This document shows, in pieces, positions 9,872 to 53,163 of a stretch of 64,000 bases of DNA; the stretch's first letter is position 1, and the number at the start of each line of letters is the position of its first letter. The notes under the pieces are model-generated. The model was not told where the DNA came from, made no database searches, and saw nothing but the letters and a program-made list of their open reading frames with translations. Source of the DNA: an uncultured virus (IMG/VR IMGVR_UViG_3300031951_000036) (taxonomy: Duplodnaviria; Heunggongvirae; Uroviricota; Caudoviricetes); the IMG/VR virus record IMGVR_UViG_3300031951_000036; one strand, written 5' to 3'. The position numbers were made by a program, and so were the translations under genes.

Positions 9872-12070
9872 TCATCGCAGATTCCTGAAGGGATTTCTGG
9901 GTTTTCTCATACTTGAAGAACCGCCACTGGCATTACCCATGTGACGAAAGGGGCTCTTATATAATGTACTGAATTTGGAAGAGTTCTCCAAATTACTCTC
10001 CTCACGTTCAACGCGTTTGCTGTAGCCCCTGTTGGACTCCTGCACTTTGGCAAATGCCACCAGCGCACAGAATGCCACCAGTCTATCCACGTTGAGTCCT
10101 TTGCGGTAAGCCTGCATTTCTTTTAACAACATTGCATCTGGAATGCGCTCTACTCCATGGGTGCGTTTCACAATGGTTCCATGTTCGTCACTCTCATGGT
10201 CAAGTTCTTCTTCCATGAACTGCACGGCATAACTCAGCAAGTTGCCACGGAAGATGTTACCTACGTTACGCCAGCCATATTCCTGGTAGACGTTGGTGTT
10301 GCTCATCAGCTCTTTGAGAAACATGATCTGGTTTTTGGGCACCAGGTATTTCTGCTTGCGACGCGAAATCATGTACTGGATAAACAGCGAGATGTTGTTT
10401 TCCACAATGGTCCACGCATTGTACCACTCAATGATCAGTTCCAGGCGCTCATGCGTTTTGTTGAGGTCATCAAAACGACCGCACCAACTAGCGACAATCT
10501 TGTCACGTTCAATCACCTGCTCAATGCTACCGTCTTTCTTGTGCTTGGTGACTTCCTGGGACGTCTTGTATACGTAGATGGAACACAAAGATTCTGAGGT
10601 TGTTGTCTTACCTTCTGCCACAGGGTCAATGCTGGCGTAGTACGTACCGAAGGCTGCGTCTTTCTGCGGGCGTTCATACACGCAAATGACTCCCTCTTTG
10701 TTCTGTGTCTTAGGCGTAATGGGAAACTCCAGGATGGGCAGCTTTTTGCTGTCCTGTGCCTGAATCTTACCATGCTCATCGCGGTAGAGCTCTACGTACT
10801 CAGAAAAGTATGTCTTGTCTTCAATGCGTCTCAGCTGTTGAGTAACCAGGTGCAGCGGGAACACGGAGTCTTCCCTGCTGGCAAAAGCCTCTGAAATGTA
10901 CATGGGTTTCTGAGACACCCTAAGCTGGTACTCATCCGGGCGTAGTTTCTTTTTCCAATCCTCACGCTCTGCCAGGATCATGGTCATGGCTTCCTCCACT
11001 TTGGAATTACCCCACTGGTCAATGCAGGGAATCATACTCCACTGCTCTGGAATAAAGAGTCCACACTCCCCAATTTGCCCGTTCTCATCCATCAGGTTGG
11101 TCTCTATGGCAAGCACATCCTTGGAATCGGGGTTCATGATCAGGTCTTTCAGTGGCTCACACTGCTCCAAATCTCCTACAGAACCTGCCACTACAAACTG
11201 TCCCGTGTAGACCATACCCGATTTCATGGCAGGTAACAGGTACTCCAGGGTCTTACCCATGTGTGGGGCAATACCTGCCTCCTCATGGAAGAACAACGTA
11301 CAAGGACCACCGACACCATTGGTAGGGTCTTTCTCCAGTACCAGGCCTATGAGAACGCTTTTCAGACCCACGTCGCGCTTGCGGCCACCCTGGTTAATCT
11401 CAATCTTCTGTTCCCAGTTCAATACCTTGTCAGGATTGCTGGGACGGTACCATGCAGTATGCGTGTTCAGGAAGTTTCGGTACTCCTCTAGGAAACGCCA
11501 AGTGCCTTTCTCTGCGATGTAGTCTTTCAGAGAACCGGCCATCTTGTTGATCGCACCCTCTTCAAACCAGTAGAGGTTGATCATCTTGGCCGCATGAAAA
11601 TAGGATGACGCAATCTGACGTTTCTTCAGGATTGCAGCATGTTTGTAGTGTTGCTTGGCCAGTTCCTCGTAGAGGGCCATGTGGTACTGGGCATCCCGTA
11701 CATCCGGGAAGGTGAACTTCCCCACCTCTTTGTTGTAGATAGGTAGGAAGTTCAGCCACATGTAGTAGTCACGGGTAAGATACCAGGTCTTTTTCCCATT
11801 TTTGTAGATCACCCCGTTGCGGCACTTGTCTTTCTCAGTATCCCAGTAGGCTACAAAATCCTTACTCTTGGGTGGAGCAGGGCAATAAAACTTGTCTATG
11901 TTAAACCTACGCGCCTGCTTGTTGAATAGCAGAGAGCACTCGTCAAACTCGTATTGACCAGGCTGTTTGAACATTGACCACAAGAACTCACAAAATGTTT
12001 CACGTGTCACAAATTCTGTGTGGCTCCACTCACCGGTGGCGTAATCATAGGTTGGGATCTTAATGTGCAT
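9872..12070 (-). CDS. terL: Terminase large subunit
   Basis: ILKKRQIASS (Walker A-like), FFHEEAG (Walker B), YYASIDPV nuclease motif, NVDRLVAF; start placed at ATG 12070, which overlaps the upstream TGA. Confidence 0.9.
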   Translation of the reverse strand: MHIKIPTYDYATGEWSHTEFVTRETFCEFLWSMFKQPGQYEFDECSLLFNKQARRFNIDKFYCPAPPKSKDFVAYWDTEKDKCRNGVIYKNGKKTWYLTRDYYMWLNFLPIYNKEVGKFTFPDVRDAQYHMALYEELAKQHYKHAAILKKRQIASSYFHAAKMINLYWFEEGAINKMAGSLKDYIAEKGTWRFLEEYRNFLNTHTAWYRPSNPDKVLNWEQKIEINQGGRKRDVGLKSVLIGLVLEKDPTNGVGGPCTLFFHEEAGIAPHMGKTLEYLLPAMKSGMVYTGQFVVAGSVGDLEQCEPLKDLIMNPDSKDVLAIETNLMDENGQIGECGLFIPEQWSMIPCIDQWGNSKVEEAMTMILAEREDWKKKLRPDEYQLRVSQKPMYISEAFASREDSVFPLHLVTQQLRRIEDKTYFSEYVELYRDEHGKIQAQDSKKLPILEFPITPKTQNKEGVICVYERPQKDAAFGTYYASIDPVAEGKTTTSESLCSIYVYKTSQEVTKHKKDGSIEQVIERDKIVASWCGRFDDLNKTHERLELIIEWYNAWTIVENNISLFIQYMISRRKQKYLVPKNQIMFLKELMSNTNVYQEYGWRNVGNIFRGNLLSYAVQFMEEELDHESDEHGTIVKRTHGVERIPDAMLLKEMQAYRKGLNVDRLVAFCALVAFAKVQESNRGYSKRVEREESNLENSSKFSTLYKSPFRHMGNASGGSSSMRKPRNPFRNLR

Positions 12071-12249
12071 CAGTCTTTCAAATCGTCTACTATCAGGCGC
12101 ACGTGACCCGTACTTACGGGCCATATCACCTGTTTGATTTCATAGGTATTGTTGTCCAACTCAATCCAGTCTCCTTTGCAAGGAACCTGTCTAAAATCAA
12201 AGTATGCCAGTGTACCTTCTGCTTTATGGATGATTGCTGTTGAGGGCAT
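12070..12249 (-). CDS. Small hypothetical protein (59 aa, not in ORF track)
   Basis: MPSTAIIHKAEGTLAYFDFRQVPCKGDWIEL...; TGATG coupling to terL. Confidence 0.55.
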   Translation of the reverse strand: MPSTAIIHKAEGTLAYFDFRQVPCKGDWIELDNNTYEIKQVIWPVSTGHVRLIVDDLKD

Positions 12250-12815: not shown

Positions 12816-13340
12816 TTACATCTGGTCATAGCCCAGCTGTTGTCCTCCGCGCACCATGCTCTTTTGTTCTTCCATCAGGTCTTTGTACGCTCCTTTGAAA
12901 CTCATGCGGATGGCCTCAAATTTGGCAGCAGCATTGACCAGGGAGTTGATGTTCCCGTCACGCCCGTGTTCAATGGGTGTGGTTTCCATGTACTTGGCCA
13001 GGCGGTCCAGCATGTGCTTCATACCAATGTATGCGCGGTAGGTAGGTGTCTCGTATAGTTTTTTGCACATATCCAGGGCGTACAGGATAGGCTCGTCTTC
13101 TGTAGAAAAGTCTGGCTGAATCTGCGAGAGGATAAGCTCCTCCTTTTCATTTTCTGGCGTGTCAAAAAACGGGTTCATGTCCGGGTTAGGACAAGTCATA
13201 TAGAACAGGTACAGGTACACTTTCATGTAACTGTCCGGATATTCTTCCATGATGTCCTTCAGGAACTTCAGCGCGTAGCAATGTTCTGAGGGAATGATGG
13301 CTCCTTCATGTATATCAAATAGTTTTACCATGTCTTCCAA
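12816..13340 (-). CDS. Conserved crAss-like hypothetical protein upstream of terminase
   Basis: 174 aa ending VRGGQQLGYDQM; tightly packed in operon. Confidence 0.6.
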   Translation of the reverse strand: MEDMVKLFDIHEGAIIPSEHCYALKFLKDIMEEYPDSYMKVYLYLFYMTCPNPDMNPFFDTPENEKEELILSQIQPDFSTEDEPILYALDMCKKLYETPTYRAYIGMKHMLDRLAKYMETTPIEHGRDGNINSLVNAAAKFEAIRMSFKGAYKDLMEEQKSMVRGGQQLGYDQM

Positions 13341-13521
13341 AGGTTAGGTTGTTTCTTACTCTCAGATCCTTGTGCGTGAACTGCCACATCTCTCCTGTCT
13401 CATCAATTATTACCGTGTATACTGTATCCGTTTCATGTCCGTAGTCTGTCACTAGCCATACGACTCCTTTACCTTTAGGTGTGATTACCTCCAGGCGGTT
13501 GTGTGGTTCGTAGATCATCAT
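13315..13521 (-). CDS. Small hypothetical protein
   Basis: 68 aa, overlaps both neighbours. Confidence 0.55.
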   Translation of the reverse strand: MMIYEPHNRLEVITPKGKGVVWLVTDYGHETDTVYTVIIDETGEMWQFTHKDLRVRNNLTFGRHGKTI

Positions 13522-14189
13522 AGCAGCGTGACTTGTATTTGTTCATCCCGCTCTACCAGGTGATAGTACAGCTCTATATCAGCGCTCCACCCAGCTCCTG
13601 TCCAGAACTCAAAACCTTTGAACCCTGCCTTGTAGCGACAGCATTTCTCATAACCTCCCAGCAGATACACGTGCGTGCAGTGCAGCTGAGAAGCCAGATT
13701 GCATTCGTGCATTTGGGCAATGTTACCCAGCGACAGACCAGGATGTTCATAGTTGGATATGAACTGCATGGCCACAAACTGGTCATCATAGGTTTTGTAA
13801 AAACTTACACCGGCCAGCTTGTCATCGTGCCAATACTCAATACACTGGCAACCTTCAAAGTGTTCCCACTGTATATCCCTGGCAAATCCATGGTACGCAC
13901 AGTATTGCTCGTAAATTTTTTTGTATGCGTCCTGGTGCAGAATGAAATCACCAGGGCGGGCAGTCACCTTCTTACTCAGCCTTTTGACTGTTTCAGACGG
14001 ACGGTATAAGGAAAGGTCCAGGCGTACACTGCGCAGGTTATACCATTCAGAACCCCAAGGGATCCACCCTTCTTTGAGTGCATCCGCGCCAGATTCTCCT
14101 GGCTCCAGGATTCCATAGGGCGCGGAGTAGATAAAGTCTAAGTCAGAGACCTTACCAAAACCTTCTATGTGGTCAAAGTGCACTTTCAC
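13518..14189 (-). CDS. ATE1/Bpt-like aminoacyl-tRNA--protein transferase (GNAT-like fold)
   Basis: RSVRLDLSLYRPS, IEYWHDDKLAGVS, LSLG...HVYLLGGYEKCCRYKAGF match the ATE C-terminal pattern; GTGA/ATGA overlaps with neighbours. Confidence 0.65.
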   Translation of the reverse strand: MKVHFDHIEGFGKVSDLDFIYSAPYGILEPGESGADALKEGWIPWGSEWYNLRSVRLDLSLYRPSETVKRLSKKVTARPGDFILHQDAYKKIYEQYCAYHGFARDIQWEHFEGCQCIEYWHDDKLAGVSFYKTYDDQFVAMQFISNYEHPGLSLGNIAQMHECNLASQLHCTHVYLLGGYEKCCRYKAGFKGFEFWTGAGWSADIELYYHLVERDEQIQVTLL

Positions 14190-15034
14190 TTTTTCTTTTT
14201 CTTTTGCAGCATAGCTGCGTTGTCCTTGTACCAGCTCATGATAGAGAGGACCTCATCTTTAAGATACGGCAACTCATAGGGAATCACCTCTTTTACGATG
14301 GGTTCTCCGTTACTATCCAGTTTGCTAATGGGATAACCAAACTCATCTTTCTCCTCTTCCTCTTCAAACACGATGTGGTGGATGGTAAGCTTTCCCGCCT
14401 TGAGGTTGGGATTATGCTTCAGGATCATGTACATGTAAATGCTCAGCTGGAGGTTGTAGTGGTTCAGGTTACAGTCGTCCAGGTGTGATACCGGAAAGCC
14501 CATCTTCTGTGAGATGCCCTCCCAGTTCTTGAACGACTCTGCTTTGATCTCCTTGTTGGTTTTGTAGTCGGTGATGTGCACCTGTCCATCCGCAACCTCC
14601 ACCAGGTCTGACTGTCCGCAGATCCCTGCTGAGCGTAAATACACCATGTGCTCTGGATAGATACCTTCAATCAGTTTCTGAGAAGGCGCCATCTTTTTTC
14701 CGTTCTCATCAAACATGGGACGGATCACCGGCAGCTCCTTGTTGTGACGATTCAAGGTTGTGCAGCCGGTGATGTCCTGCTCCCGCTGGTCATGGTACCA
14801 GTTTCCCAGGCTACAAGCCCTGTCAGATTCTTTCTTCCAGGCAGCTTGTATCTGTTCCACCGTCATACCATACCATTTACCCTTTTTGTTAGCCGCGCTT
14901 TTTTTCGCTACCGCGTTGCTGTCAAAAGGTTGTTTGAGGTGTCCGATCAGTGTAGTGACACTGGTCCAGAGTGTCGCATCAGAAGCGTCAATGCTTTTGT
15001 ACGAGTGGGTTGAAGGTTCAAATACTAAGGACAT
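14186..15034 (-). CDS. PD-(D/E)XK nuclease
   Basis: SVTTLI, ICGQSDLV, ITDYKTN, YNLQLSIY motifs. Confidence 0.8.
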   Translation of the reverse strand: MSLVFEPSTHSYKSIDASDATLWTSVTTLIGHLKQPFDSNAVAKKSAANKKGKWYGMTVEQIQAAWKKESDRACSLGNWYHDQREQDITGCTTLNRHNKELPVIRPMFDENGKKMAPSQKLIEGIYPEHMVYLRSAGICGQSDLVEVADGQVHITDYKTNKEIKAESFKNWEGISQKMGFPVSHLDDCNLNHYNLQLSIYMYMILKHNPNLKAGKLTIHHIVFEEEEEKDEFGYPISKLDSNGEPIVKEVIPYELPYLKDEVLSIMSWYKDNAAMLQKKKKK

Positions 15035-16342: not shown

Positions 16343-16633
16343 TTAATCTAAAATCATCCAGTCTTCAGACAGCATGTCCGTCTGAGAGGCAAGCCATCCC
16401 ATCAGGATCTTGTTGTCTGCGGTTTTGAACAAGATATATGGCAATACTTCAGCAGTACCACCGTTTTGTTCTGCAAATGCACGGGTGTGAGGATTCCAGA
16501 ACTTCTCTGCTTCTAGTGCAGGGTTTCCTTCACCCAAAGCAACCCACATCCCTTTACCATTCCAGCCGGCACGGCAAGCGCGCTTACCAGCTTTTAGCGC
16601 TTCAAGCGCTTGACCATAACTTAGATTGCTCAT
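16343..16633 (-). CDS. Tad2-like (DUF2829-type) nucleotide-sponge anti-defence protein
   Basis: YGQALEALKAGKRACRAGWNGKGMW ... WLASQTDMLSEDW family signature. Confidence 0.8.
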   Translation of the reverse strand: MSNLSYGQALEALKAGKRACRAGWNGKGMWVALGEGNPALEAEKFWNPHTRAFAEQNGGTAEVLPYILFKTADNKILMGWLASQTDMLSEDWMILD

Positions 16634-16878
16634 TTCTTCAGCCCCTTGGCAATGCCCTTTACCGCATACATCTGCGCTGTTTCTAACTCTGTCATGGCAA
16701 TGCTAAAGCAACGCTTGGCCTCACCATCTTCTGTACCAAGCAATTCATTGTTACAATAATCAATGGCATCTGCCATCATACGTTTGAATGTTCCAATCTT
16801 GTCATCTGAAGATGGATTGAAATTGATATGACATCTAGACTCCCCTAGTGTCAATGTTCTCATGTCTGTGTTTTCCAT
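16630..16878 (-). CDS. Acb2/Tad1-like helical-hairpin protein (putative signal sponge)
   Basis: TLGESRCHINFNPS ... KRCFSIAMTELETAQMYAVKGIA resembles the Acb2/Tad1 C-terminal hairpin; start at 16878 avoids overlap with the tRNA. Confidence 0.6.
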   Translation of the reverse strand: MENTDMRTLTLGESRCHINFNPSSDDKIGTFKRMMADAIDYCNNELLGTEDGEAKRCFSIAMTELETAQMYAVKGIAKGLKK

Positions 16879-16895
16879 ACTTGGTTTTAAAGTAG

Positions 16896-16970
16896 TTGCG
16901 GGGGCAGGGCTCGAACCTGCGTACTTCGGCTTATGAGACCGAGCTGGGACCAACTCCAGTCTACCCCGCC
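16896..16970 (-). tRNA. tRNA-Met(CAT), initiator-like
   Basis: GGCGGGG/CCCCGCA acceptor with 1:72 mismatch; TCGGT-CTCATAA-GCCGA; T arm GCAGG-TTCGAGC-CCTGC. Confidence 0.85.
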
Positions 16971-16979
16971 ATCCAGAGG

Positions 16980-17267
16980 TTACCACACAATGGCCACCTC
17001 ATATTCGTTCAACATCAGGTAATGCTTGTCTTCCAACGGTAACACTTCGCATGACTGCAACGCGCTGCCAGAGATGTACACTTCGTCCCCTGCTTTTACA
17101 CCTTCTACTTCTTCACCAACCGCAGACACTTTAAGACGTGTCCACTTGCTGATGAACTCACGGTCCAGTGCAGCTTGCTGTTCTGGGGTCAACTCAATGG
17201 CTGACTTCGGACGCTCTGGTTTCTCAATAAGAATCCTTCGTCCCTTAAGGGCTTTAAACTCTAGCAT
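16980..17267 (-). CDS. GroES/Cpn10-like co-chaperonin
   Basis: LKGRRILIEK ... VSAVGEEVEGVKAGDEVYI ... YLMLNEYEVAIV. Confidence 0.7.
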   Translation of the reverse strand: MLEFKALKGRRILIEKPERPKSAIELTPEQQAALDREFISKWTRLKVSAVGEEVEGVKAGDEVYISGSALQSCEVLPLEDKHYLMLNEYEVAIVW

Positions 17268-28429: not shown

Positions 28430-29710
28430 ATGATTTTACTACAATCATTCATTGAAGGTACCAGCTATCAGGTACGCCCATTGCCTAACCAACCTGCGTT
28501 TGAAAGCAAGATTTCCCGCAAGGTAGAAGACATCAAAATCACCTGCACCGTTGCAGATTTTGCACGCTTCCCCTTGGGAACCATCTTCATTTGCCAGGTT
28601 CCTGAGTTCCCTGAGACAGATCACTTGCACATCCCTAAGGATACTGCGCCTGCGTTGATCTTTGGTGAATCTGTGTTTCCGCTGGTAGATTTTGGAGATG
28701 ACCTGAAGCCTATTGTAGACTACACTGTAGACTACATGTTGCAGTCTTCAGAGTTTGGTATTGAGAAAGCCCAATCGTTTACCAAAGCTGTTGCAGCATA
28801 CGGGTACACCTTTGACTGGGAAGCCAAGCTTGCTGTTCCCACCAGCACTTCTTCTGCCCCATCCGGTGCAGTGCGTGCATCTATCGCGGCCAAGTTCCCT
28901 GTGCCTAAGGTAGAGGACATCGGTTTCCAGGTGGATCCTGACAAATGGTTCCTCATGGTGCGTAATGTGCTCCGTGGAGAGAACACGCTTCTCATAGGCC
29001 CTACCGGTTCTGGTAAGACAGAAATCATGACCCACTTGTCTGCGGCCATGGAGCGTGAGTTGCACATCCAGGATATGGGTACCGTGCAGGATGCGTCTTC
29101 TGCGTTGCAGGGTGTTCACCGTTTGAACAAAGAAGGTCATTCCGCTTTTGAGTTTGCACCGTTTGTGGACCATATCAAGAGTGGCGGCATCGTCTTGCTT
29201 GACGAGTTGAACCGCTCTCCTTTGGCTGCTAACAACATCTTATTCCCATGCTTGGACAAGCGTCGCTATTTGCCTATCGACATTGCATGCGAAGGTTGTG
29301 ACCGCAAGATCATGGTGCATGAGAACACTGTGTTCTTTGCCACCGCAAACTTGGGTGCTGAGTATTCAGGTACTCAGGCAATCGACCGCGCGTTGCTTGA
29401 CCGTTTCTTCCCTGTTGAGTTGGATTACCCACAGGAGAAAGATGAGATCCGCGTGTTGATGTTGCGCACCGGCATTGATGAGAAAGCTGCCACCGGTATT
29501 GTGAGAGTCTCTAATGAGATCCGCAAGCAGTACAAGGAGCAGGAGTTGTCCAATGCTGTATCTGTGCGTCACACTTTGCAGGCTGCGGGCTTGATTGCTG
29601 ACGGATTTGAGGCTGACAAGGCCTTGAGACATACGATCCTTCCTCTGTTTGAGGATGGTATCGGGGTGACTGAGCGCTCCAAGGTGCTCAGCATCATGGC
29701 TGCATTCTAA
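28430..29710 (+). CDS. MoxR/CbbQ-type AAA+ ATPase
   Basis: GPTGSGKT, VLLDELNR, FFATAN, ALLDRF. Confidence 0.85.
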   Translation: MILLQSFIEGTSYQVRPLPNQPAFESKISRKVEDIKITCTVADFARFPLGTIFICQVPEFPETDHLHIPKDTAPALIFGESVFPLVDFGDDLKPIVDYTVDYMLQSSEFGIEKAQSFTKAVAAYGYTFDWEAKLAVPTSTSSAPSGAVRASIAAKFPVPKVEDIGFQVDPDKWFLMVRNVLRGENTLLIGPTGSGKTEIMTHLSAAMERELHIQDMGTVQDASSALQGVHRLNKEGHSAFEFAPFVDHIKSGGIVLLDELNRSPLAANNILFPCLDKRRYLPIDIACEGCDRKIMVHENTVFFATANLGAEYSGTQAIDRALLDRFFPVELDYPQEKDEIRVLMLRTGIDEKAATGIVRVSNEIRKQYKEQELSNAVSVRHTLQAAGLIADGFEADKALRHTILPLFEDGIGVTERSKVLSIMAAF

Positions 29711-29781
29711 AGCTGTACAGGGAACAGCTACAGTTGAGTGGGGAGATTCGTTCTCCCCCTCTTCATTCCCCAAGTTGAACT

Positions 29782-31695
29782 ATGGACAGTACACCTTACA
29801 TGGGTAAATACGTAAAAGACTGGTTTAATAGACGCGCGGAAGACGCGTTCACCCACGTTGATGAATCTAAGAGATTATTCAGCTGGGACCATGGAAGAGA
29901 CTCTTACTCTTCTTTCTTCCACTCTGGCAAGAACCCTGCAAAAGATGCGGGTAAAATGATTGGCTCCATGTTCAAAGTGATTGGACTGCCCAAGCACATC
30001 AAGTACACACCGGTAGCCAACCAGGTGAAGGATAGTCTCAGAGAGTCCCATCCCAAAGTGCACATCCCTATTGGTATGTTGCGCGATGAGGATAAGAACT
30101 GGAAGGATGATCCTGAAACCCTGGACGCATTCTATGGTGCATGTATCCAAAACGCAGCTCTTGCAGCGATGCAATCTGACATGGACTACAAGCGTACCAT
30201 TCAACCACGCTATGGTGAGGACAAGAAGAACGTGCAGCAATTGCTCACTTCTATCCTGAACACCGAGCGCATTGACAAGAAGTTGTCTGACCGTTTGCCT
30301 GGCTATCTGAAGTTTGTACAGAAGTTCAAGAACCACATGTACGAACAAAACCACGAGGCTCTTCCTGAAGACGCGCCCGCAAGAGCACGTCTGCTTGACC
30401 TGGTGACCCGCATGTTGCGCTATCCTGCACACATCACCGAGGAAGAGATGGAAGAGTTCAAGAAACCAATTGATTCCATTGAGCGCATGCTCAAACGCAG
30501 AGGTGGGATTCCTGACACGTACGCTGAGTGTGAATCTTTTGGCCGCTCCATTGCCAAGCTGGTGTATGAGTATGAGGAAGAAGAGCCACCACCCCCAGGC
30601 GGAGGAGGCGGAGAAGATGAAGGAGAAGGTGAAGGTGGTGAAGGTACACCTCCTCCAAGTGGAGCCGGTGGTTCTGAAAGCGAAGGTGACGGTGAAGCGG
30701 AAAAATCACCCATGAGCAAAAGCGAACTGGATGCCATGGCAGATAAAATGATGCGTGATCTCATGAGTGGTGACGAAGGTGATGCAGGAGATAAACGTCT
30801 GATGAGTGACTTCCGCGACTTTGAGGATTCATCCAAAGAAGAGAATGAAGACATCTTCAGTCGCATGGAAGAAGGTGTTGTGCAGAAAGGTAAAGTCACC
30901 TTTGACATTGCCAGCGGTAACAAGGAAAGATACCTGCGTGAGAAAGGAAAGATTGATCTTACCAAAGCTCAGGTATTGGCGCGTCTGTTTGCCCGCAAGA
31001 GCAAGGATTACCAGTTCTCCATGAAGAGCATGCGTTCCGGTCGTTTGGATGTGGGTAAGCTGGCAGAAGCCAAGCAACATGTCCCTACTATTTATGAGCG
31101 CATGGGTCAGGTAAAGACTGACAAGGTCTGTGTGGGTGTACTTATTGATGAGTCTGGTTCTATGAGTGGCAGTCGCATTGAACGTGCCCGCCAAGGTGCA
31201 ATATTCTTAAATGAAGTGTTCAAGAAGATGCCAAGCGTAGAGCTGTTCATCTACGGTCACACCGCTGATACCAAAGGCAATGGGTCTACTGACATGATGA
31301 TCTACTGTGAGCCCGGTAAAGCTGTTGATCCCTTTGCATTGGGTTCTGTCACAGCACGGGTAGAGAACAGAGATGGCGAGGCTATCCTGGCAACCGCTGC
31401 ACGCATCCGCTCCAAGACCAAGAACAACGGTTTGTTGTTTGTTTTGTCTGACGGTGGACCTTGTGCATACAATTACCATGGTAAATCTGCTATTGCTGAT
31501 GTTCGCAAGAAGGTTCTGCAGGCAGAAGCCATGGGATTCCAGGTGATCCAGATTGCCATATCTGAGTGTGTTCCTTCCGCTGAGATGTTTTCCCACTACA
31601 TTAACATGACAGACATCGCCAACCTTCCCAAGGATATGGTAAACTACATGAGTAAGAAAGTGGGTAAGCTTATCAAAGAGCGAGTATTTGTTTAA
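29782..31695 (+). CDS. vWA (MIDAS) domain protein, CobT-like partner of the AAA ATPase
   Basis: Acidic Gly-rich linker, RSGRLD, VLIDESGSMSG, VLSDG. Confidence 0.85.
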   Translation: MDSTPYMGKYVKDWFNRRAEDAFTHVDESKRLFSWDHGRDSYSSFFHSGKNPAKDAGKMIGSMFKVIGLPKHIKYTPVANQVKDSLRESHPKVHIPIGMLRDEDKNWKDDPETLDAFYGACIQNAALAAMQSDMDYKRTIQPRYGEDKKNVQQLLTSILNTERIDKKLSDRLPGYLKFVQKFKNHMYEQNHEALPEDAPARARLLDLVTRMLRYPAHITEEEMEEFKKPIDSIERMLKRRGGIPDTYAECESFGRSIAKLVYEYEEEEPPPPGGGGGEDEGEGEGGEGTPPPSGAGGSESEGDGEAEKSPMSKSELDAMADKMMRDLMSGDEGDAGDKRLMSDFRDFEDSSKEENEDIFSRMEEGVVQKGKVTFDIASGNKERYLREKGKIDLTKAQVLARLFARKSKDYQFSMKSMRSGRLDVGKLAEAKQHVPTIYERMGQVKTDKVCVGVLIDESGSMSGSRIERARQGAIFLNEVFKKMPSVELFIYGHTADTKGNGSTDMMIYCEPGKAVDPFALGSVTARVENRDGEAILATAARIRSKTKNNGLLFVLSDGGPCAYNYHGKSAIADVRKKVLQAEAMGFQVIQIAISECVPSAEMFSHYINMTDIANLPKDMVNYMSKKVGKLIKERVFV

Positions 31696-31702
31696 CCCTA
31701 TA

Positions 31703-31738
31703 CCCCAGGTGTGTGAGCCTGGGGTTTACTTTTTTTTC
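31703..31738 (+). terminator. Intrinsic terminator
   Basis: CCCCAGG...CCTGGGG plus T tract. Confidence 0.7.
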
Positions 31739-31739
31739 T

Positions 31740-32606
31740 ATGAGCATTGTACAGACATTAACCCGCAAAAGCATGGTCATTAGACCAAGCGGTAGAAGCA
31801 CTGACTATATCAGCCCGTCGTTTGGTTTTGGCTGCTTATATAATTGTTCTTACTGCTATCTTAAGCGACATAAGCCAGAAGGCTTGGACATTGCTACTAA
31901 CACGGTAGATATCCTGACCGCTATTGACCATCACTCGTGGTTTGCAGATGCAGAGAAACCCAACCAGACGCATGAGCAGTACATTACGTATGATATCTCC
32001 TGCAATGAGGACTTTGCATTACATGCCAAACAACACGAGTGGCAGAAGATCTTTGGCTTTTTCAGAGATCACTCACGTGCAATGGCATCCTTTGCTACCA
32101 AGTATGTAAATCCTGCACTGCTGACGTTTGATCCAAAACAAAAAGTCAGGGTGCGTTTCAGTCTGATGCCTATAGAATATTCTCTCATGCTTGAGCCCAA
32201 CACCAGCAACATATGGCATAGAATCTATGCTATCAATGATTTCATTGAGGCAGGGTATGATGTGCACATCAACTTCTCACCTGTGATTGTAGGTAAAGAT
32301 TGGTTAGATAAGTACAGGCTTCTTTTTGCTATGGTGGATACAGTGGTGAAGCCAGAGTATAAGGACCGTGTGAAAGCAGAGGTGATCTTCATGACGCACA
32401 ATGAGCAGAAGCACAAGTACAATCTGAAGCACAACTTGCCTGGTGAAGACCTGTTATGGGTTCCTCAAGTGCAAGAATCTAAGGTCTCCCAATACGGAGG
32501 CACCAACATCCGCTACAAGCACGACGTCAAAGCAGAGTACATCAGACAATGGACTGCTGTGCATGATGAAGTGATACCGTGGAACACAATCAGATACATT
32601 TTTTAA
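31740..32606 (+). CDS. Spore photoproduct lyase-like radical SAM protein
   Basis: GCLYNCSYCY (CxxxCxxC), FATKYVN, RVRFSLMP, NFSPVI. Confidence 0.8.
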   Translation: MSIVQTLTRKSMVIRPSGRSTDYISPSFGFGCLYNCSYCYLKRHKPEGLDIATNTVDILTAIDHHSWFADAEKPNQTHEQYITYDISCNEDFALHAKQHEWQKIFGFFRDHSRAMASFATKYVNPALLTFDPKQKVRVRFSLMPIEYSLMLEPNTSNIWHRIYAINDFIEAGYDVHINFSPVIVGKDWLDKYRLLFAMVDTVVKPEYKDRVKAEVIFMTHNEQKHKYNLKHNLPGEDLLWVPQVQESKVSQYGGTNIRYKHDVKAEYIRQWTAVHDEVIPWNTIRYIF

Positions 32607-38766: not shown

Positions 38767-39234
38767 ATGAACACCACACTGAAGCGCGCCCTCTATCTAG
38801 ATGATGTGCGCACCCCAACTGTTACCCTGGAAGGCTTTGCGCCATTTGCAGTGGTAAGAAACTATGACCAATTTGTCGGGCACATCCAGTCTCATGGAGT
38901 GCCTGACCTCATATCCTTTGACCATGACCTGGCTGATGAGCACATGATGGATTACTTTACCCATCAGGCTAATGGCATTGCCGTGGTTGAGTATGATAAG
39001 TTTACTGAGAAGACAGGCCTTGATTGCATCAAGTGGCTGTGTAACTACATCCTTGATGAGCATGAAAAAGGCAATACTATTCCTATGCCTGCTGTGCGCG
39101 TGCATAGCCATAATCCTGTGGGTGGTGCGAACATACATAACTATGCAAATAATTTTTGCGCATCCATGGGTTGGCCTGCTGCTGCTAGTTTTCTGAGAGT
39201 TCCCTTTGAGATAGCAACACAGGTAGACGAATAG
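38767..39234 (+). CDS. Cyclic-phosphate-processing receiver-like domain protein
   Basis: LYLDDVRTP, ISFDHDL, TGLDCIKWL, VHSHNPVG. Confidence 0.7.
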   Translation: MNTTLKRALYLDDVRTPTVTLEGFAPFAVVRNYDQFVGHIQSHGVPDLISFDHDLADEHMMDYFTHQANGIAVVEYDKFTEKTGLDCIKWLCNYILDEHEKGNTIPMPAVRVHSHNPVGGANIHNYANNFCASMGWPAAASFLRVPFEIATQVDE

Positions 39235-40182: not shown

Positions 40183-40278
40183 AGCACAGTGGTGAAATTG
40201 GTTCACACAAGTCAGTGGAGTAATTCCCAACGGTAAAAAAAGATACTTGTGATACAGGTTCAAATCCTGTCTGTGCTA
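40183..40278 (+). ncRNA. tRNA-like RNA with oversized anticodon loop
   Basis: AGCACAG/CTGTGCT acceptor, D arm, ACAAGT/ACTTGT stem enclosing >30 nt, T arm ACAGG-TTCAAAT-CCTGT. Confidence 0.7.
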
Positions 40279-40499: not shown

Positions 40500-40581
40500 G
40501 GCCATGTGGTGGAATTGGTAGACACACACGTCTCAGAAGCGTGTATCTCACGATGTGCAGGTTCGACTCCTGTCATGGTCA
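40500..40581 (+). tRNA. tRNA-Leu(CAG)
   Basis: GGCCATG/CATGGTC, CACGT-CTCAGAA-GCGTG, variable arm, T arm. Confidence 0.9.
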
Positions 40582-40583
40582 CA

Positions 40584-42836: not shown

Positions 42837-42986
42837 GTCTGTGTAACACATTGATTATCAATGCCTGTTCCTTGCGTAACATGCGTAAAACAGGCATTTT
42901 TAGTGTGGTAAATCGTGAGTGATTTACACCTACACAAAACTGTTCAAAAAACGCATCCACGCTATCATAGGTATAAAATCCTTTAT

Positions 42987-44162
42987 ATGATAGTATCTTT
43001 CTTCACAAGACCCGGCAGGCGGGGTGTGCGCTTCCTGTATTGCCGGTTAACCACCCAGCAAAAATGCGCAGAAATCAAGCTCAACTACATTGTTACAGGC
43101 AGTGACAGGAAAGTGGATGCTTACAAGAAGCAGGTAGAAGACCAGATTGCTGAGCTCTACAACCACCAACTGATCAAAGAAAAGCCAGCGGATCCCCAGA
43201 CCATTAAGACCCTGTTCCAAACCAAAACCAAGGCGTACTTCCTGCTGGATACGTTCAAGGACTTTATTGACAGGCGGATTAAACCCAGGGTAGATAAGAA
43301 AGACCTGGGCAAAGGTAGCCTTCAGAAGTATACCTGCGTCTATGAACACCTCAAGGATTTCACAAATGCCCGTGGGCGTACAGACGTACCCTGGCAAATG
43401 GTGGATGATACCTTTGTAGAAGAGTTTGATGAGTACCTCAGACAGTTCAACTCCCACAACACGGTAATGAAGAGCCTGTACAAGTTCAAGACCGTGGTCA
43501 CCTATGCCCTGAAGGTCAAAAAGTACATTACAGAAGACCCTTTTGCTACCAAGTCATTGACACTGAAGAAGGTGTTTCCCATTGCCCTGACCCAGACTGA
43601 GCTCCAGATGCTGATCAAAAAGCGCATGGACGTTGAACGGCTGGAACAGGTAAAGGACTTGTTTCTTTTCCAGTGTTTTAGCGGTTTGTCTTATGCAGAC
43701 ATGCGCAAACTGAAACAGGCGTATATCAGTGACCAAATCATCAACACCAACCGTCAGAAGAACGGTGAGCCTGCTATAGCGTATATGTACCAACTCGCTG
43801 AAATGATACTAAAAAAGCATGAAAACAGGCTTCCCATAGTGTCAAATCAAAAAATGAACGCATATCTTAAAGAAATTGCTGACATTTGCAACATTAGTAA
43901 ACGGTTAACTACACACGTGGCAAGACACACGTATGCTACAACAGTTAATTTAAAGAACGGTGTATCTTTACAAACCGTTCAAAAGTTGCTTGGTCACGCA
44001 ACGATTAAACAAACAGAACATTACGCGCGTTTGGACGACAGTGATGTAAAAAATGTGTGCAAACGAGCAAGCAGGAAAGTAAACAAACTATATAACTTAC
44101 CTGAACAGTTAAGTTTTTTTGACAAACAAAAGCAAGAAAATGGCGAAGAAAAAGCTCACTGA
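42987..44162 (+). CDS. int: Tyrosine integrase, Bacteroidota IntDOT-like
   Basis: FQCFSGLSYAD (Ser at first Arg position), RQK, SNQKMNAYLKEI, HVARHT, LLGH, TEHY. Confidence 0.92.
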   Translation: MIVSFFTRPGRRGVRFLYCRLTTQQKCAEIKLNYIVTGSDRKVDAYKKQVEDQIAELYNHQLIKEKPADPQTIKTLFQTKTKAYFLLDTFKDFIDRRIKPRVDKKDLGKGSLQKYTCVYEHLKDFTNARGRTDVPWQMVDDTFVEEFDEYLRQFNSHNTVMKSLYKFKTVVTYALKVKKYITEDPFATKSLTLKKVFPIALTQTELQMLIKKRMDVERLEQVKDLFLFQCFSGLSYADMRKLKQAYISDQIINTNRQKNGEPAIAYMYQLAEMILKKHENRLPIVSNQKMNAYLKEIADICNISKRLTTHVARHTYATTVNLKNGVSLQTVQKLLGHATIKQTEHYARLDDSDVKNVCKRASRKVNKLYNLPEQLSFFDKQKQENGEEKAH

Positions 44163-52707: not shown

Positions 52708-53163
52708 ATGAACAACTGGATCTATGTACCTACCGGTGAAGAAGTCACCAAGGTGCAACACCTTCCCAACCATGAAGCCATTGTCGGCTTTGTCTACAAA
52801 ATAACCAATCTCAAGACTGGTAAATTTTACATCGGGCAGAAAAGCCTGTATCACGCACGCAAGAAAAAAGTCTCAGTTACTGAGAAGCGTCTCACAGGAA
52901 CCCGCAAGAAGTTCCGCATAGAGATGAAAGAGTCTGACTGGGCATTGTACCACGGTTCTTCCAAGGACCTGACATCAGACATCAGTAAGCTGGGTAACAA
53001 GTATTTTAAGCGTGAAATCCTGGAGCTGTGTTGCTCCAAAAAATACCTGTCATATTGCGAGCTGTCATGGCAGGTCAAGCTAGACGTCTTGAAATGCAAC
53101 AGCTACAACGGTAACATCCTTGGCCGTTACTTCCACAGGGATATGGAAAACTGTAAAAATTAG
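52708..53163 (+). CDS. GIY-YIG endonuclease-like protein
   Basis: GFVYKITNLKTGKFYIGQK ... FKREIL ... YNGNI. Confidence 0.75.
   Translation: MNNWIYVPTGEEVTKVQHLPNHEAIVGFVYKITNLKTGKFYIGQKSLYHARKKKVSVTEKRLTGTRKKFRIEMKESDWALYHGSSKDLTSDISKLGNKYFKREILELCCSKKYLSYCELSWQVKLDVLKCNSYNGNILGRYFHRDMENCKN

Follow-up and report, generated by a model that had tools for sequence, protein, structure and literature searches.

Aminoacyl-tRNA-protein transferases are known as components of cellular N-degron pathways, and a full-text literature search returned no description of a phage-encoded one, nor any paper on a phage ATE/Bpt-type transferase or on a phage ClpS in an N-degron context. The title of a preprint (bioRxiv 10.1101/2021.07.26.453911) credits L/F-transferase with making a Leu/N-degron ligand through a novel modification. 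In this work, we describe a gene for a transferase of the ATE1/Bpt superfamily, together with a small companion gene that overlaps it, in a 64,000-nucleotide (nt) stretch of DNA from an uncultured Caudoviricetes virus (IMG/VR record IMGVR_UViG_3300031951_000036), the whole of which is referred to below as the window.

The closest described systems are ATE1 and its bacterial counterpart Bpt. According to a study of K. lactis Ate1 (klAte1; PMC9351520), the catalytic residue is Lys304 (Lys305 in FemX), and the Arg pocket is formed by Ser255/Ser273/Glu277/Tyr289, with the Bpt equivalents Ala168/Ala185/Gln189/Leu201. The Zn site of klAte1 comprises Cys23, Cys26, Cys95 and Cys96, and its acceptor pocket Arg80, Tyr25 and Tyr87; the same study describes Arg80 as indispensable for the arginylation of peptides that begin with Asp or Glu, and the R80E substitution as abolishing activity (PMC9351520). 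A second point of reference is Mom of phage Mu, for which PMC13219725 reports a GNAT core with a helix-turn-helix (HTH)-like insertion, the essential residues R111 and S124, and a Gly-tRNA-dependent adenine modification of DNA, a substrate not predictable from the structure.

Two genes of the window are at issue:

13518..14189, minus strand: transferase gene, 223 amino acids (aa), GTG start; an open reading frame (ORF) with a Pfam ATE_C match and a fold match, ATE/Bpt-like and without the Cys cluster
13315..13521, minus strand: 68-aa companion gene, predicted small SH3/Tudor/KOW-like beta-barrel; its ATG overlaps the transferase stop

The TGA stop of the transferase shares 4 nt with the ATG of the companion, and its GTG start shares 4 nt with the TGA of the upstream gene (14186-15034, minus strand), which encodes a 282-aa PD-(D/E)XK nuclease. 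The first-pass annotation, made from the sequence without database searches, had described a 223-aa ORF with 4-nt overlaps on both sides and assigned it to the ATE1/Bpt enzymes; coordinates, overlaps and family all agree with our analysis, whereas the fixed 68-aa companion gene had gone unremarked. We interpret the protein as a compact phage aminoacyl-tRNA transferase of the ATE1/Bpt type with a new acceptor, for which the companion would serve as a substrate or targeting subunit, and whose role may be N-degron tagging; to this reading as a whole we give a probability of about 0.4.

Family assignment, distribution and predicted fold

The transferase ORF is a real, conserved gene and not a chance reading frame, because 145 relatives were found at E <= 0.001 in a collection of 5.8 billion proteins, 502 of 525 candidate stretches in viral contigs encode a transferase relative, and an alignment of 25 relatives contains 56 invariant columns. 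The best 120 of the 145 relatives are 199-248 aa long, 118 of them bear a precomputed PF04377 mark, and many of these relatives are already annotated as arginyltransferase by the JGI pipeline. Searching 1.84 billion proteins with a profile built from 25 relatives retrieved 373 clusters (50% identity). The family is large in viral contigs and was hardly encountered in prokaryotes: a scan of about 185,000 species genomes yielded three transferase loci, one of them on a phage-like contig of 117.8 kb that had been binned with a Chitinophagaceae metagenome-assembled genome (MAG). No transferase relative was detected by tblastn in 50,697 reference phage records, and no PHROGs family matched the transferase at E <= 0.001.

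The window protein belongs to the ATE1/Bpt superfamily. Pfam ATE_C (PF04377) covers residues 98-194 with 31.8 bits (cut-off 25; E 2.5e-7), and the next family, Acetyltransf_6, reaches 17.7 bits, below its cut-off of 22; PF04377 is also matched by 54 of 90 relatives. Both motifs that had earlier been read as ATE-C-like, LSLG (residues 152-155) and VYLLGGYEKCCRYKAGF (residues 174-190), lie within the matching stretch. ATE_N (PF04376) was matched neither by the window protein nor by any of the 90 relatives, as expected from the first-pass annotation, in which no N-terminal Cys/metal part could be made out. Among solved structures, ATE1 is the best match: yeast ATE1 provides the sole chains found at E <= 1e-3 with the profile of 25 relatives, and the profile of 90 relatives matches the klAte1 chain 7wfx_A with an E-value of 5e-9 (HMMER).

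With bacterial Bpt, an Asp/Glu leucyl-tRNA-protein transferase (ATE_N plus ATE_C, PRK01305), the protein shares its approximate size (223 vs 235-270 aa), the ATE_C GNAT domain, the catalytic Lys and the basic helix. It differs in being phage-borne and tied to a 68-aa companion, and its scores against the NCBIfam arginyl/leucyl transferase equivalog models (PRK01305) are only 14-31 bits, far below the cut-offs of 170-358. The two are also separated in a quick tree, where the window's subfamily forms one clade (support 93) within a group of 107 metagenomic proteins; the cellular Bpt proteins and those of Bacteroidota fall outside this group and join at support 97.

The AlphaFold (AF2) model of the transferase has a mean predicted local distance difference test score (pLDDT) of 89.6. 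The Foldseek comparison with ATE1/Bpt that had been suggested as a check placed human ATE1 first (E 3e-9), followed by yeast ATE1 at ranks 2-13 and then by FemX, MprF and L/F-transferase. In VIA, human ATE1 aligned with a Z-score of 14.9 over 212 residues (model residues 1-217) and K. lactis Ate1 with 13.0 over 214, while FemX reached 15.5 over 147 residues and MprF 14.3, the spans of these two being 147-170 residues. In the model the whole chain, including the N-lobe, is ATE-like, because the ATE1 matches span the full length (ATE1 is the sole match aligning 212-214 of the 223 residues), whereas acetyl-CoA GNATs (Z 10.6-13.8) cover only the C-terminal 120-150 residues or so. A best structural match to an acetyl-CoA GNAT or FemAB enzyme had been named in advance as the outcome that would speak against the assignment, and it was half avoided: ATE1 leads in Foldseek and is the only full-length match, but FemX ties with it on Z over 147 residues.

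Thus ATE1 (K. lactis 7WFX/7WG1, S. cerevisiae 7TIF/8E3S, human 8TZV) is the best match in both sequence and fold and the only one over the full chain; it differs in its length of more than 500 aa, its large insertions and its Zn/Cys site. FemX/FemABX and the C-terminal domain of MprF superpose well on the GNAT core, but only the C-terminal two-thirds of the window protein aligns, the protein has no second GNAT domain or membrane part, and it matches no FemAB or MprF family in Pfam at E <= 1. The L/F-transferase Aat is a weak fold match (Foldseek E 2.3e-5) from a different family (PF03588) and has no sequence match to the window protein. Mom of phage Mu is likewise a phage-encoded enzyme of the GNAT superfamily that draws on charged tRNA (PMC13219725), but it has an HTH-like insertion and acts on double-stranded DNA, whereas the window protein has an ATE-type N-lobe; Mom is absent among the listed fold and sequence matches, and no insertion is apparent in the secondary structure of our model.

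Catalytic lysine, donor pocket and acceptor site

The C-terminal part of the protein was mapped with the HMMER alignment of 90 relatives to 7wfx_A, in which the chain numbering equals the paper numbering plus 4. For the N-lobe, the mapping ran through an intermediate, a set of seven Bacteroidota chromosomal ATE_C proteins, and direct comparison with Bpt stops at residues 54-203. The functional positions obtained are as follows:

13629..13631, minus strand: Lys187 codon, aligned with klAte1 Lys304 (K308 in the chain); Lys in 89 of 90 relatives
13668..13772, minus strand: donor-pocket stretch with Ala140 (klAte1 Ser255), Ala158 (Ser273), Glu162 (Glu277) and Val174 (Tyr289), from the alignment to klAte1 and Bpt
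13968..13985, minus strand: candidate tRNA-binding basic helix with Lys69, Arg70, Lys73 and Lys74, after the conserved Arg56 strand
14055..14069, minus strand: Gly41-Trp42-Ile43-Pro44-Trp45, replacing the GFRRS acceptor motif of Bpt/ATE1, from two chained profile alignments

Lys187 and Glu162 correspond to Lys304 and Glu277 of ATE1, and the pockets differ in that ATE1 has Ser/Ser/Glu/Tyr where the window protein has Ala/Ala/Glu/Val. The donor-pocket residues are invariant within the subfamily, and position 162 is Glu in 72 of the 90 relatives. In a comparison set of nine canonical Bpt from a proteobacterial class, the pockets read A/A/Q/L (four proteins), A/A/E/L (three), A/A/Q/V (one) and A/S/T/V (one), so that eight of nine follow the pattern A/A/(Q or E)/(L or V) to which the window protein (A/A/E/V) also conforms. 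An hhalign comparison of the subfamily with these nine proteins (probability 96.8, residues 54-203) brought the same pocket columns together. Judged from these alignments, the window protein has a Bpt-type (Leu) donor pocket. Because the pocket is Bpt-like, the earlier suggestion that Leu is taken from tRNA-Leu is a fair guess. Glu162 was considered as a sign of an Arg donor and dropped, as three of the nine canonical Bpt share this Glu; it may still leave an Arg or Lys donor open.

The basic stretch coincides with a helix of the model (residues 66-72); the profile of the relatives is rich in Lys and Arg here, and the sequence aligned to it in Bpt is SQRR...KN. A tRNA-binding role of this helix is proposed as a candidate on the basis of PMC9351520.

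The acceptor side is where the protein departs from its cellular relatives. The Bacteroidota intermediates, four of six of which have a sub-threshold ATE_N match when scanned against Pfam, align to klAte1 through GFRRSG...YK...CC...TIR, with chain R84 being Arg80 of the paper, and the phage family aligns to the intermediates with an hhalign probability of 99.1. In the chained alignment, G41-W42-I43-P44 fall on klAte1 G-F-R80-R81, W49-Y50 lie near Cys95-Cys96, and R56 falls on Arg102; in Bpt, the counterpart of Arg56 is the conserved Arg in the VRV/IRI strand. Both Arg residues of GFRRSG are invariant in the nine sampled Bpt, whereas the phage protein has GWIPWG and has thereby not kept Arg80, and the four conserved Cys of these Bpt (C17, C61, C64 and C67) are all absent from it. 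Of the features that mark the family's N-terminal part, therefore, the protein retains the fold of the N-lobe but neither the Cys metal site nor the acceptor-site Arg. Invariant N-lobe positions among 25 relatives include the aromatics W42, W45, W49, F5, F11 and Y62; Arg53 is kept in 88 and Arg56 in all 90 of 90 relatives. Both the Arg that reads acidic ends and the metal site thus appear, from two chained alignments, to be replaced by hydrophobic and aromatic residues. The acceptor is probably not an acidic N-terminus, because the reading Arg is replaced within Ile-Pro-Trp and the Cys metal site by aromatics.

The Bacteroidota chromosomal ATE_C proteins themselves (218-264 aa; L085 1216-1977, L088 1240-1908 and five more) are without the Cys motif but have Arg where GFRRSG has its first Arg. 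They may be arginyl rather than leucyl transferases, because five of the seven have an ATE1-like S/T/E/Y donor pocket.

Companion gene, ClpS and proposed function

Of the 80 related viral loci, 79 have a companion homologue directly downstream of the transferase, at start/stop distances of -4 to -38 nt by longest-ORF calls; in the sole exception (L074) the sequence ends 170 nt past the transferase. The pair stays together while its surroundings change: the genes next to it fall into 21 families on the upstream side and 13 on the downstream side, some being doubtful ORFs of very small size, and the four loci annotated with Pfam show unrelated contexts around it. The companion is the more conserved partner, with 65-90% identity vs 52-81% for the transferase. 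When the companion was used as the query, a transferase was present within 2 kb in 52 of 80 loci and the companion stood alone in 28. The transferase was found nowhere in five companion-bearing genomes that are 91-100% complete, while the positive control was positive in five of five transferase-bearing genomes; for G114-G118, its absence is established within 2 kb only. At locus L129, next to the same 148-aa upstream gene as at L014 (77% identity), a 250-nt gap replaces the transferase and no remnant is left. The dependence is one-sided: the enzyme always occurs with the companion, and the companion often occurs without the enzyme. Since the enzyme never occurs without the companion while the reverse is seen, the companion would most likely be the enzyme's substrate or targeting subunit.

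In the 250-nt spacer of L129 (1750-2000) there is a long inverted repeat, as well as a hairpin that resembles a terminator and has a run of T. In phages without the transferase (L103, L106, L109, L132, L165 and others, at about position 2000), the companion stands amid long runs of very small Lys-rich ORFs of 45-120 aa, many of which begin with MAK...

The companion has no Pfam or PHROG family and no Foldseek match at E <= 0.001, and appears to be virus-only. Its model (pLDDT 72) has four strands, for which VIA returned only generic SH3/Tudor/KOW barrels (best Z 5.2). DUF3104, the nearest named cluster in the Atlas (score 0.78), was treated as a chance match. The calculated isoelectric point is 6.4. 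E5, P6, N8 and R9 near the N-terminus are invariant, and residues 1-3 are modelled with a pLDDT below 50.

All five Bacteroidota genomes tested encode ClpS, and four of the five an L/F-transferase; a chromosomal ATE_C protein scored above the cut-off in 7 of 61 Bacteroidota genomes sampled. Sister phages carry ClpS-like genes of their own (PF02617 above cut-off):

L185, 1489-1749: ClpS-like gene
L186, 1489-1746: ClpS-like gene
L184, 1489-1743: ClpS-like gene
G002:C153:4446-4634: ClpS-like gene

The phage ClpS-like proteins are 84-86 aa long with about six residues before the core, that is, with almost no N-terminal extension. They align with solved ClpS through the NDD...H stretch, of which the N and the first D alone are invariant among three of them. 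The NDD...H residues and the N-terminal extension are ones that we take to have functional roles in ClpS. ClpS-like relatives occur in 108 viral-contig stretches and in 3 of 50,697 reference phage records, all three from uncultured phages of about 640 kb. The phage-like contig of the Chitinophagaceae MAG carries both a ClpS-like gene and the transferase. Among the phage records, a ClpS-like gene is present in 10 of 19 with the transferase vs none of 10 with the companion only. A linkage between the two genes looked strong from these counts, but none of nine records approached from the ClpS side carried the transferase, and it was not counted as such. We regard ClpS and the transferase as separate accessory genes of the phage group, whose frequent co-presence fits an N-degron role but does not amount to linkage.

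In the proposed mechanism, the enzyme would take an amino acid, most likely Leu or another hydrophobic residue, from charged tRNA and join it to a free amino group that probably does not belong to an N-terminal Asp or Glu, with the 68-aa SH3-like protein most likely as its substrate or targeting subunit. Our best guess at the purpose is that a chosen protein would receive a new N-terminal residue read by ClpS, that is, an N-degron, with ClpS supplied by the host here and by a phage copy in some sister phages. N-degron tagging is plausible. In a wider form, it is a tentative possibility, on balance doubtful, that this lineage of crAss-like lake phages runs its own N-degron branch, consisting of a Cys-free Bpt-type transferase for non-acidic N-termini, an obligatory SH3-like companion (substrate, timer or targeting subunit) and, in some sisters, a phage ClpS without a long extension. 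If true, a phage could decide which host or phage proteins are destroyed and which are spared during infection. With the known acceptor-specificity residue absent, identification of donor and acceptor would show a new viral use of charged tRNA alongside the glycylation of DNA by Mom. Both proteins are small (223 and 68 aa), and should be easily expressed, which would open the question to a direct test by mass spectrometry.

Several observations weigh against this interpretation. The N-terminal mapping consists of two chained profile alignments, the direct alignment to canonical Bpt covering only residues 54-203, and over the GNAT core the Z-score of FemX is slightly above that of ATE1. The adjacency of the companion is possibly inherited gene order; at loci lacking the transferase the companion overlaps other genes on its upstream side, and the conservation of its N-terminus is the same whether or not the enzyme is present. 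The connection with ClpS is weak: the nine further ClpS-bearing phage records have no transferase, and the three of them that are 96-100% complete have no companion either. Finally, no ClpS was found in the window or in its nearest complete relative (G068, transferase 81% identical).

The most probable of the alternatives, though unlikely, is a non-protein acceptor, in which case the charged tRNA would serve to modify DNA, by analogy with Mom and its Gly-tRNA, or else a nucleotide signal or a polyamine, or, by analogy with MprF and FemX, a lipid or cell-wall precursor. The precedent of Mom as a phage GNAT that uses charged tRNA on DNA and whose substrate is unpredictable from structure (PMC13219725), the leading Z-scores of FemX and MprF over the GNAT core, and the PD-(D/E)XK nuclease and HU-like genes directly upstream are all consistent with such an acceptor, and an aromatic-rich N-lobe that has lost the acidic-end Arg could hold a base or an amine. 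However, the ATE-type N-lobe, which is part of the ATE1 peptide pocket, is kept at full length, ATE1 ranks first both by sequence and in Foldseek, the 223-aa protein has no transmembrane part or second GNAT domain, and the flanking genes vary so widely that the nuclease context is not conserved.

The one-sided dependence, the higher identity of the companion and its invariant E5, P6, N8 and R9 would also suit an enzyme that modifies the companion only, switching or maturing it rather than marking anything for degradation. This explanation seems slightly less probable still, as the N-terminal motif is unchanged in phages without the enzyme and the N-terminus of the companion is poorly modelled; no fused or longer form of the transferase was found in the search either, which is weak evidence.

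The first-pass annotation had favoured a canonical Bpt activity, in which Leu (or Arg) is transferred onto N-terminal Asp/Glu of host defence or phage assembly proteins that are then degraded by host ClpS-Clp. The Bpt-type donor pocket, the complete ATE1-like two-lobe fold, the ClpS and L/F-transferase of the Bacteroidota genomes tested, and two anti-defence-type genes 2-3 kb upstream on the same strand (described below) would agree with it, and the conserved Arg53 and Arg56 could in principle stand in for Arg80. Transfer onto acidic residues is nevertheless doubtful and this version of the function improbable, with Ile43 at the position of the Arg80 whose R80E substitution kills klAte1, Pro44 in place of the adjacent Arg, NCBIfam Bpt scores far below the cut-offs, and a family apart from cellular Bpt in the quick tree. 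Least probable is a protein that transfers nothing in vivo and only binds charged tRNA or tRNA ends, for example shielding tRNAs from host anticodon nucleases or slowing host translation: the phage does encode tRNAs (ARAGORN calls four, and Rfam adds a fifth, tRNA-like one) and the acceptor site is remodelled, but Lys in 89 of 90 relatives at the catalytic position and an invariant donor pocket are the pattern expected of an active enzyme.

Genomic surroundings

The window is a phage sequence, as it encodes a crAss-type major capsid protein (Pfam Crass_capsid) and, by PHROGs, a portal protein and a large terminase. This terminase shares no more than 26% identity with its counterparts in crAss-like, Bacteroides and Flavobacterium phages; 132 records matched it, all below 60% identity. 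The placement of the transferase in a packaging operon, as originally annotated, is loosely right: it has the same orientation as the large terminase (9872-12124), from which it is separated, on the upstream side, by about 1.4 kb containing several small ORFs. A scan for sigma-70 promoters and terminators gave nothing usable, with 7 promoter-like sites vs 8.5 expected, and this promoter type may not apply to the host.

The tRNA-Leu and the Leu-like anticodon-less RNAs that had been put forward as conceivable donors correspond to the following features:

40500-40582: tRNA-Leu(CAG)
40183-40278, plus strand: tRNA-like RNA with an interrupted anticodon loop (Rfam tRNA, 48.9 bits; no ARAGORN call)

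The former is thus present as described, and the latter is probably what had been taken for an anticodon-less RNA. This second RNA, 220 nt upstream of tRNA-Leu(CAG), has 31 nt in place of the model's 6-nt anticodon-loop centre, and may be an intron-bearing or a disabled tRNA.

On the strand of the transferase, 2-3 kb upstream, a Tad2-like gene (16343-16633, minus strand; PF11195, 85.2 bits) and an Acb2/Tad1-hairpin gene (16630-16986, minus strand; PF24729, 38.5 bits) were found; the second ORF overlaps a tRNA-Met (16895-16970), and its real start is probably internal. A cREC_REC protein (cyclic-phosphate-processing receiver domain, 66.5 bits) encoded at 38767-39234 (plus strand) adjoins tRNA-Trp and may serve in counter-defence or RNA repair. 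At 28430-32606 (plus strand), a MoxR-type AAA ATPase (AAA_5 and CbbQ_C), a match to CobT_C (a VWA-domain family) and a spore-photoproduct-lyase-like protein are encoded in a row. A tyrosine integrase (Phage_int_SAM_5 and Phage_integrase) at 42915-44162 (plus strand) hints at a temperate or integrative lifestyle of this crAss-like genome, and a gene for a SegE-type GIY-YIG homing endonuclease lies amid replication genes at 52708-53163 (plus strand).

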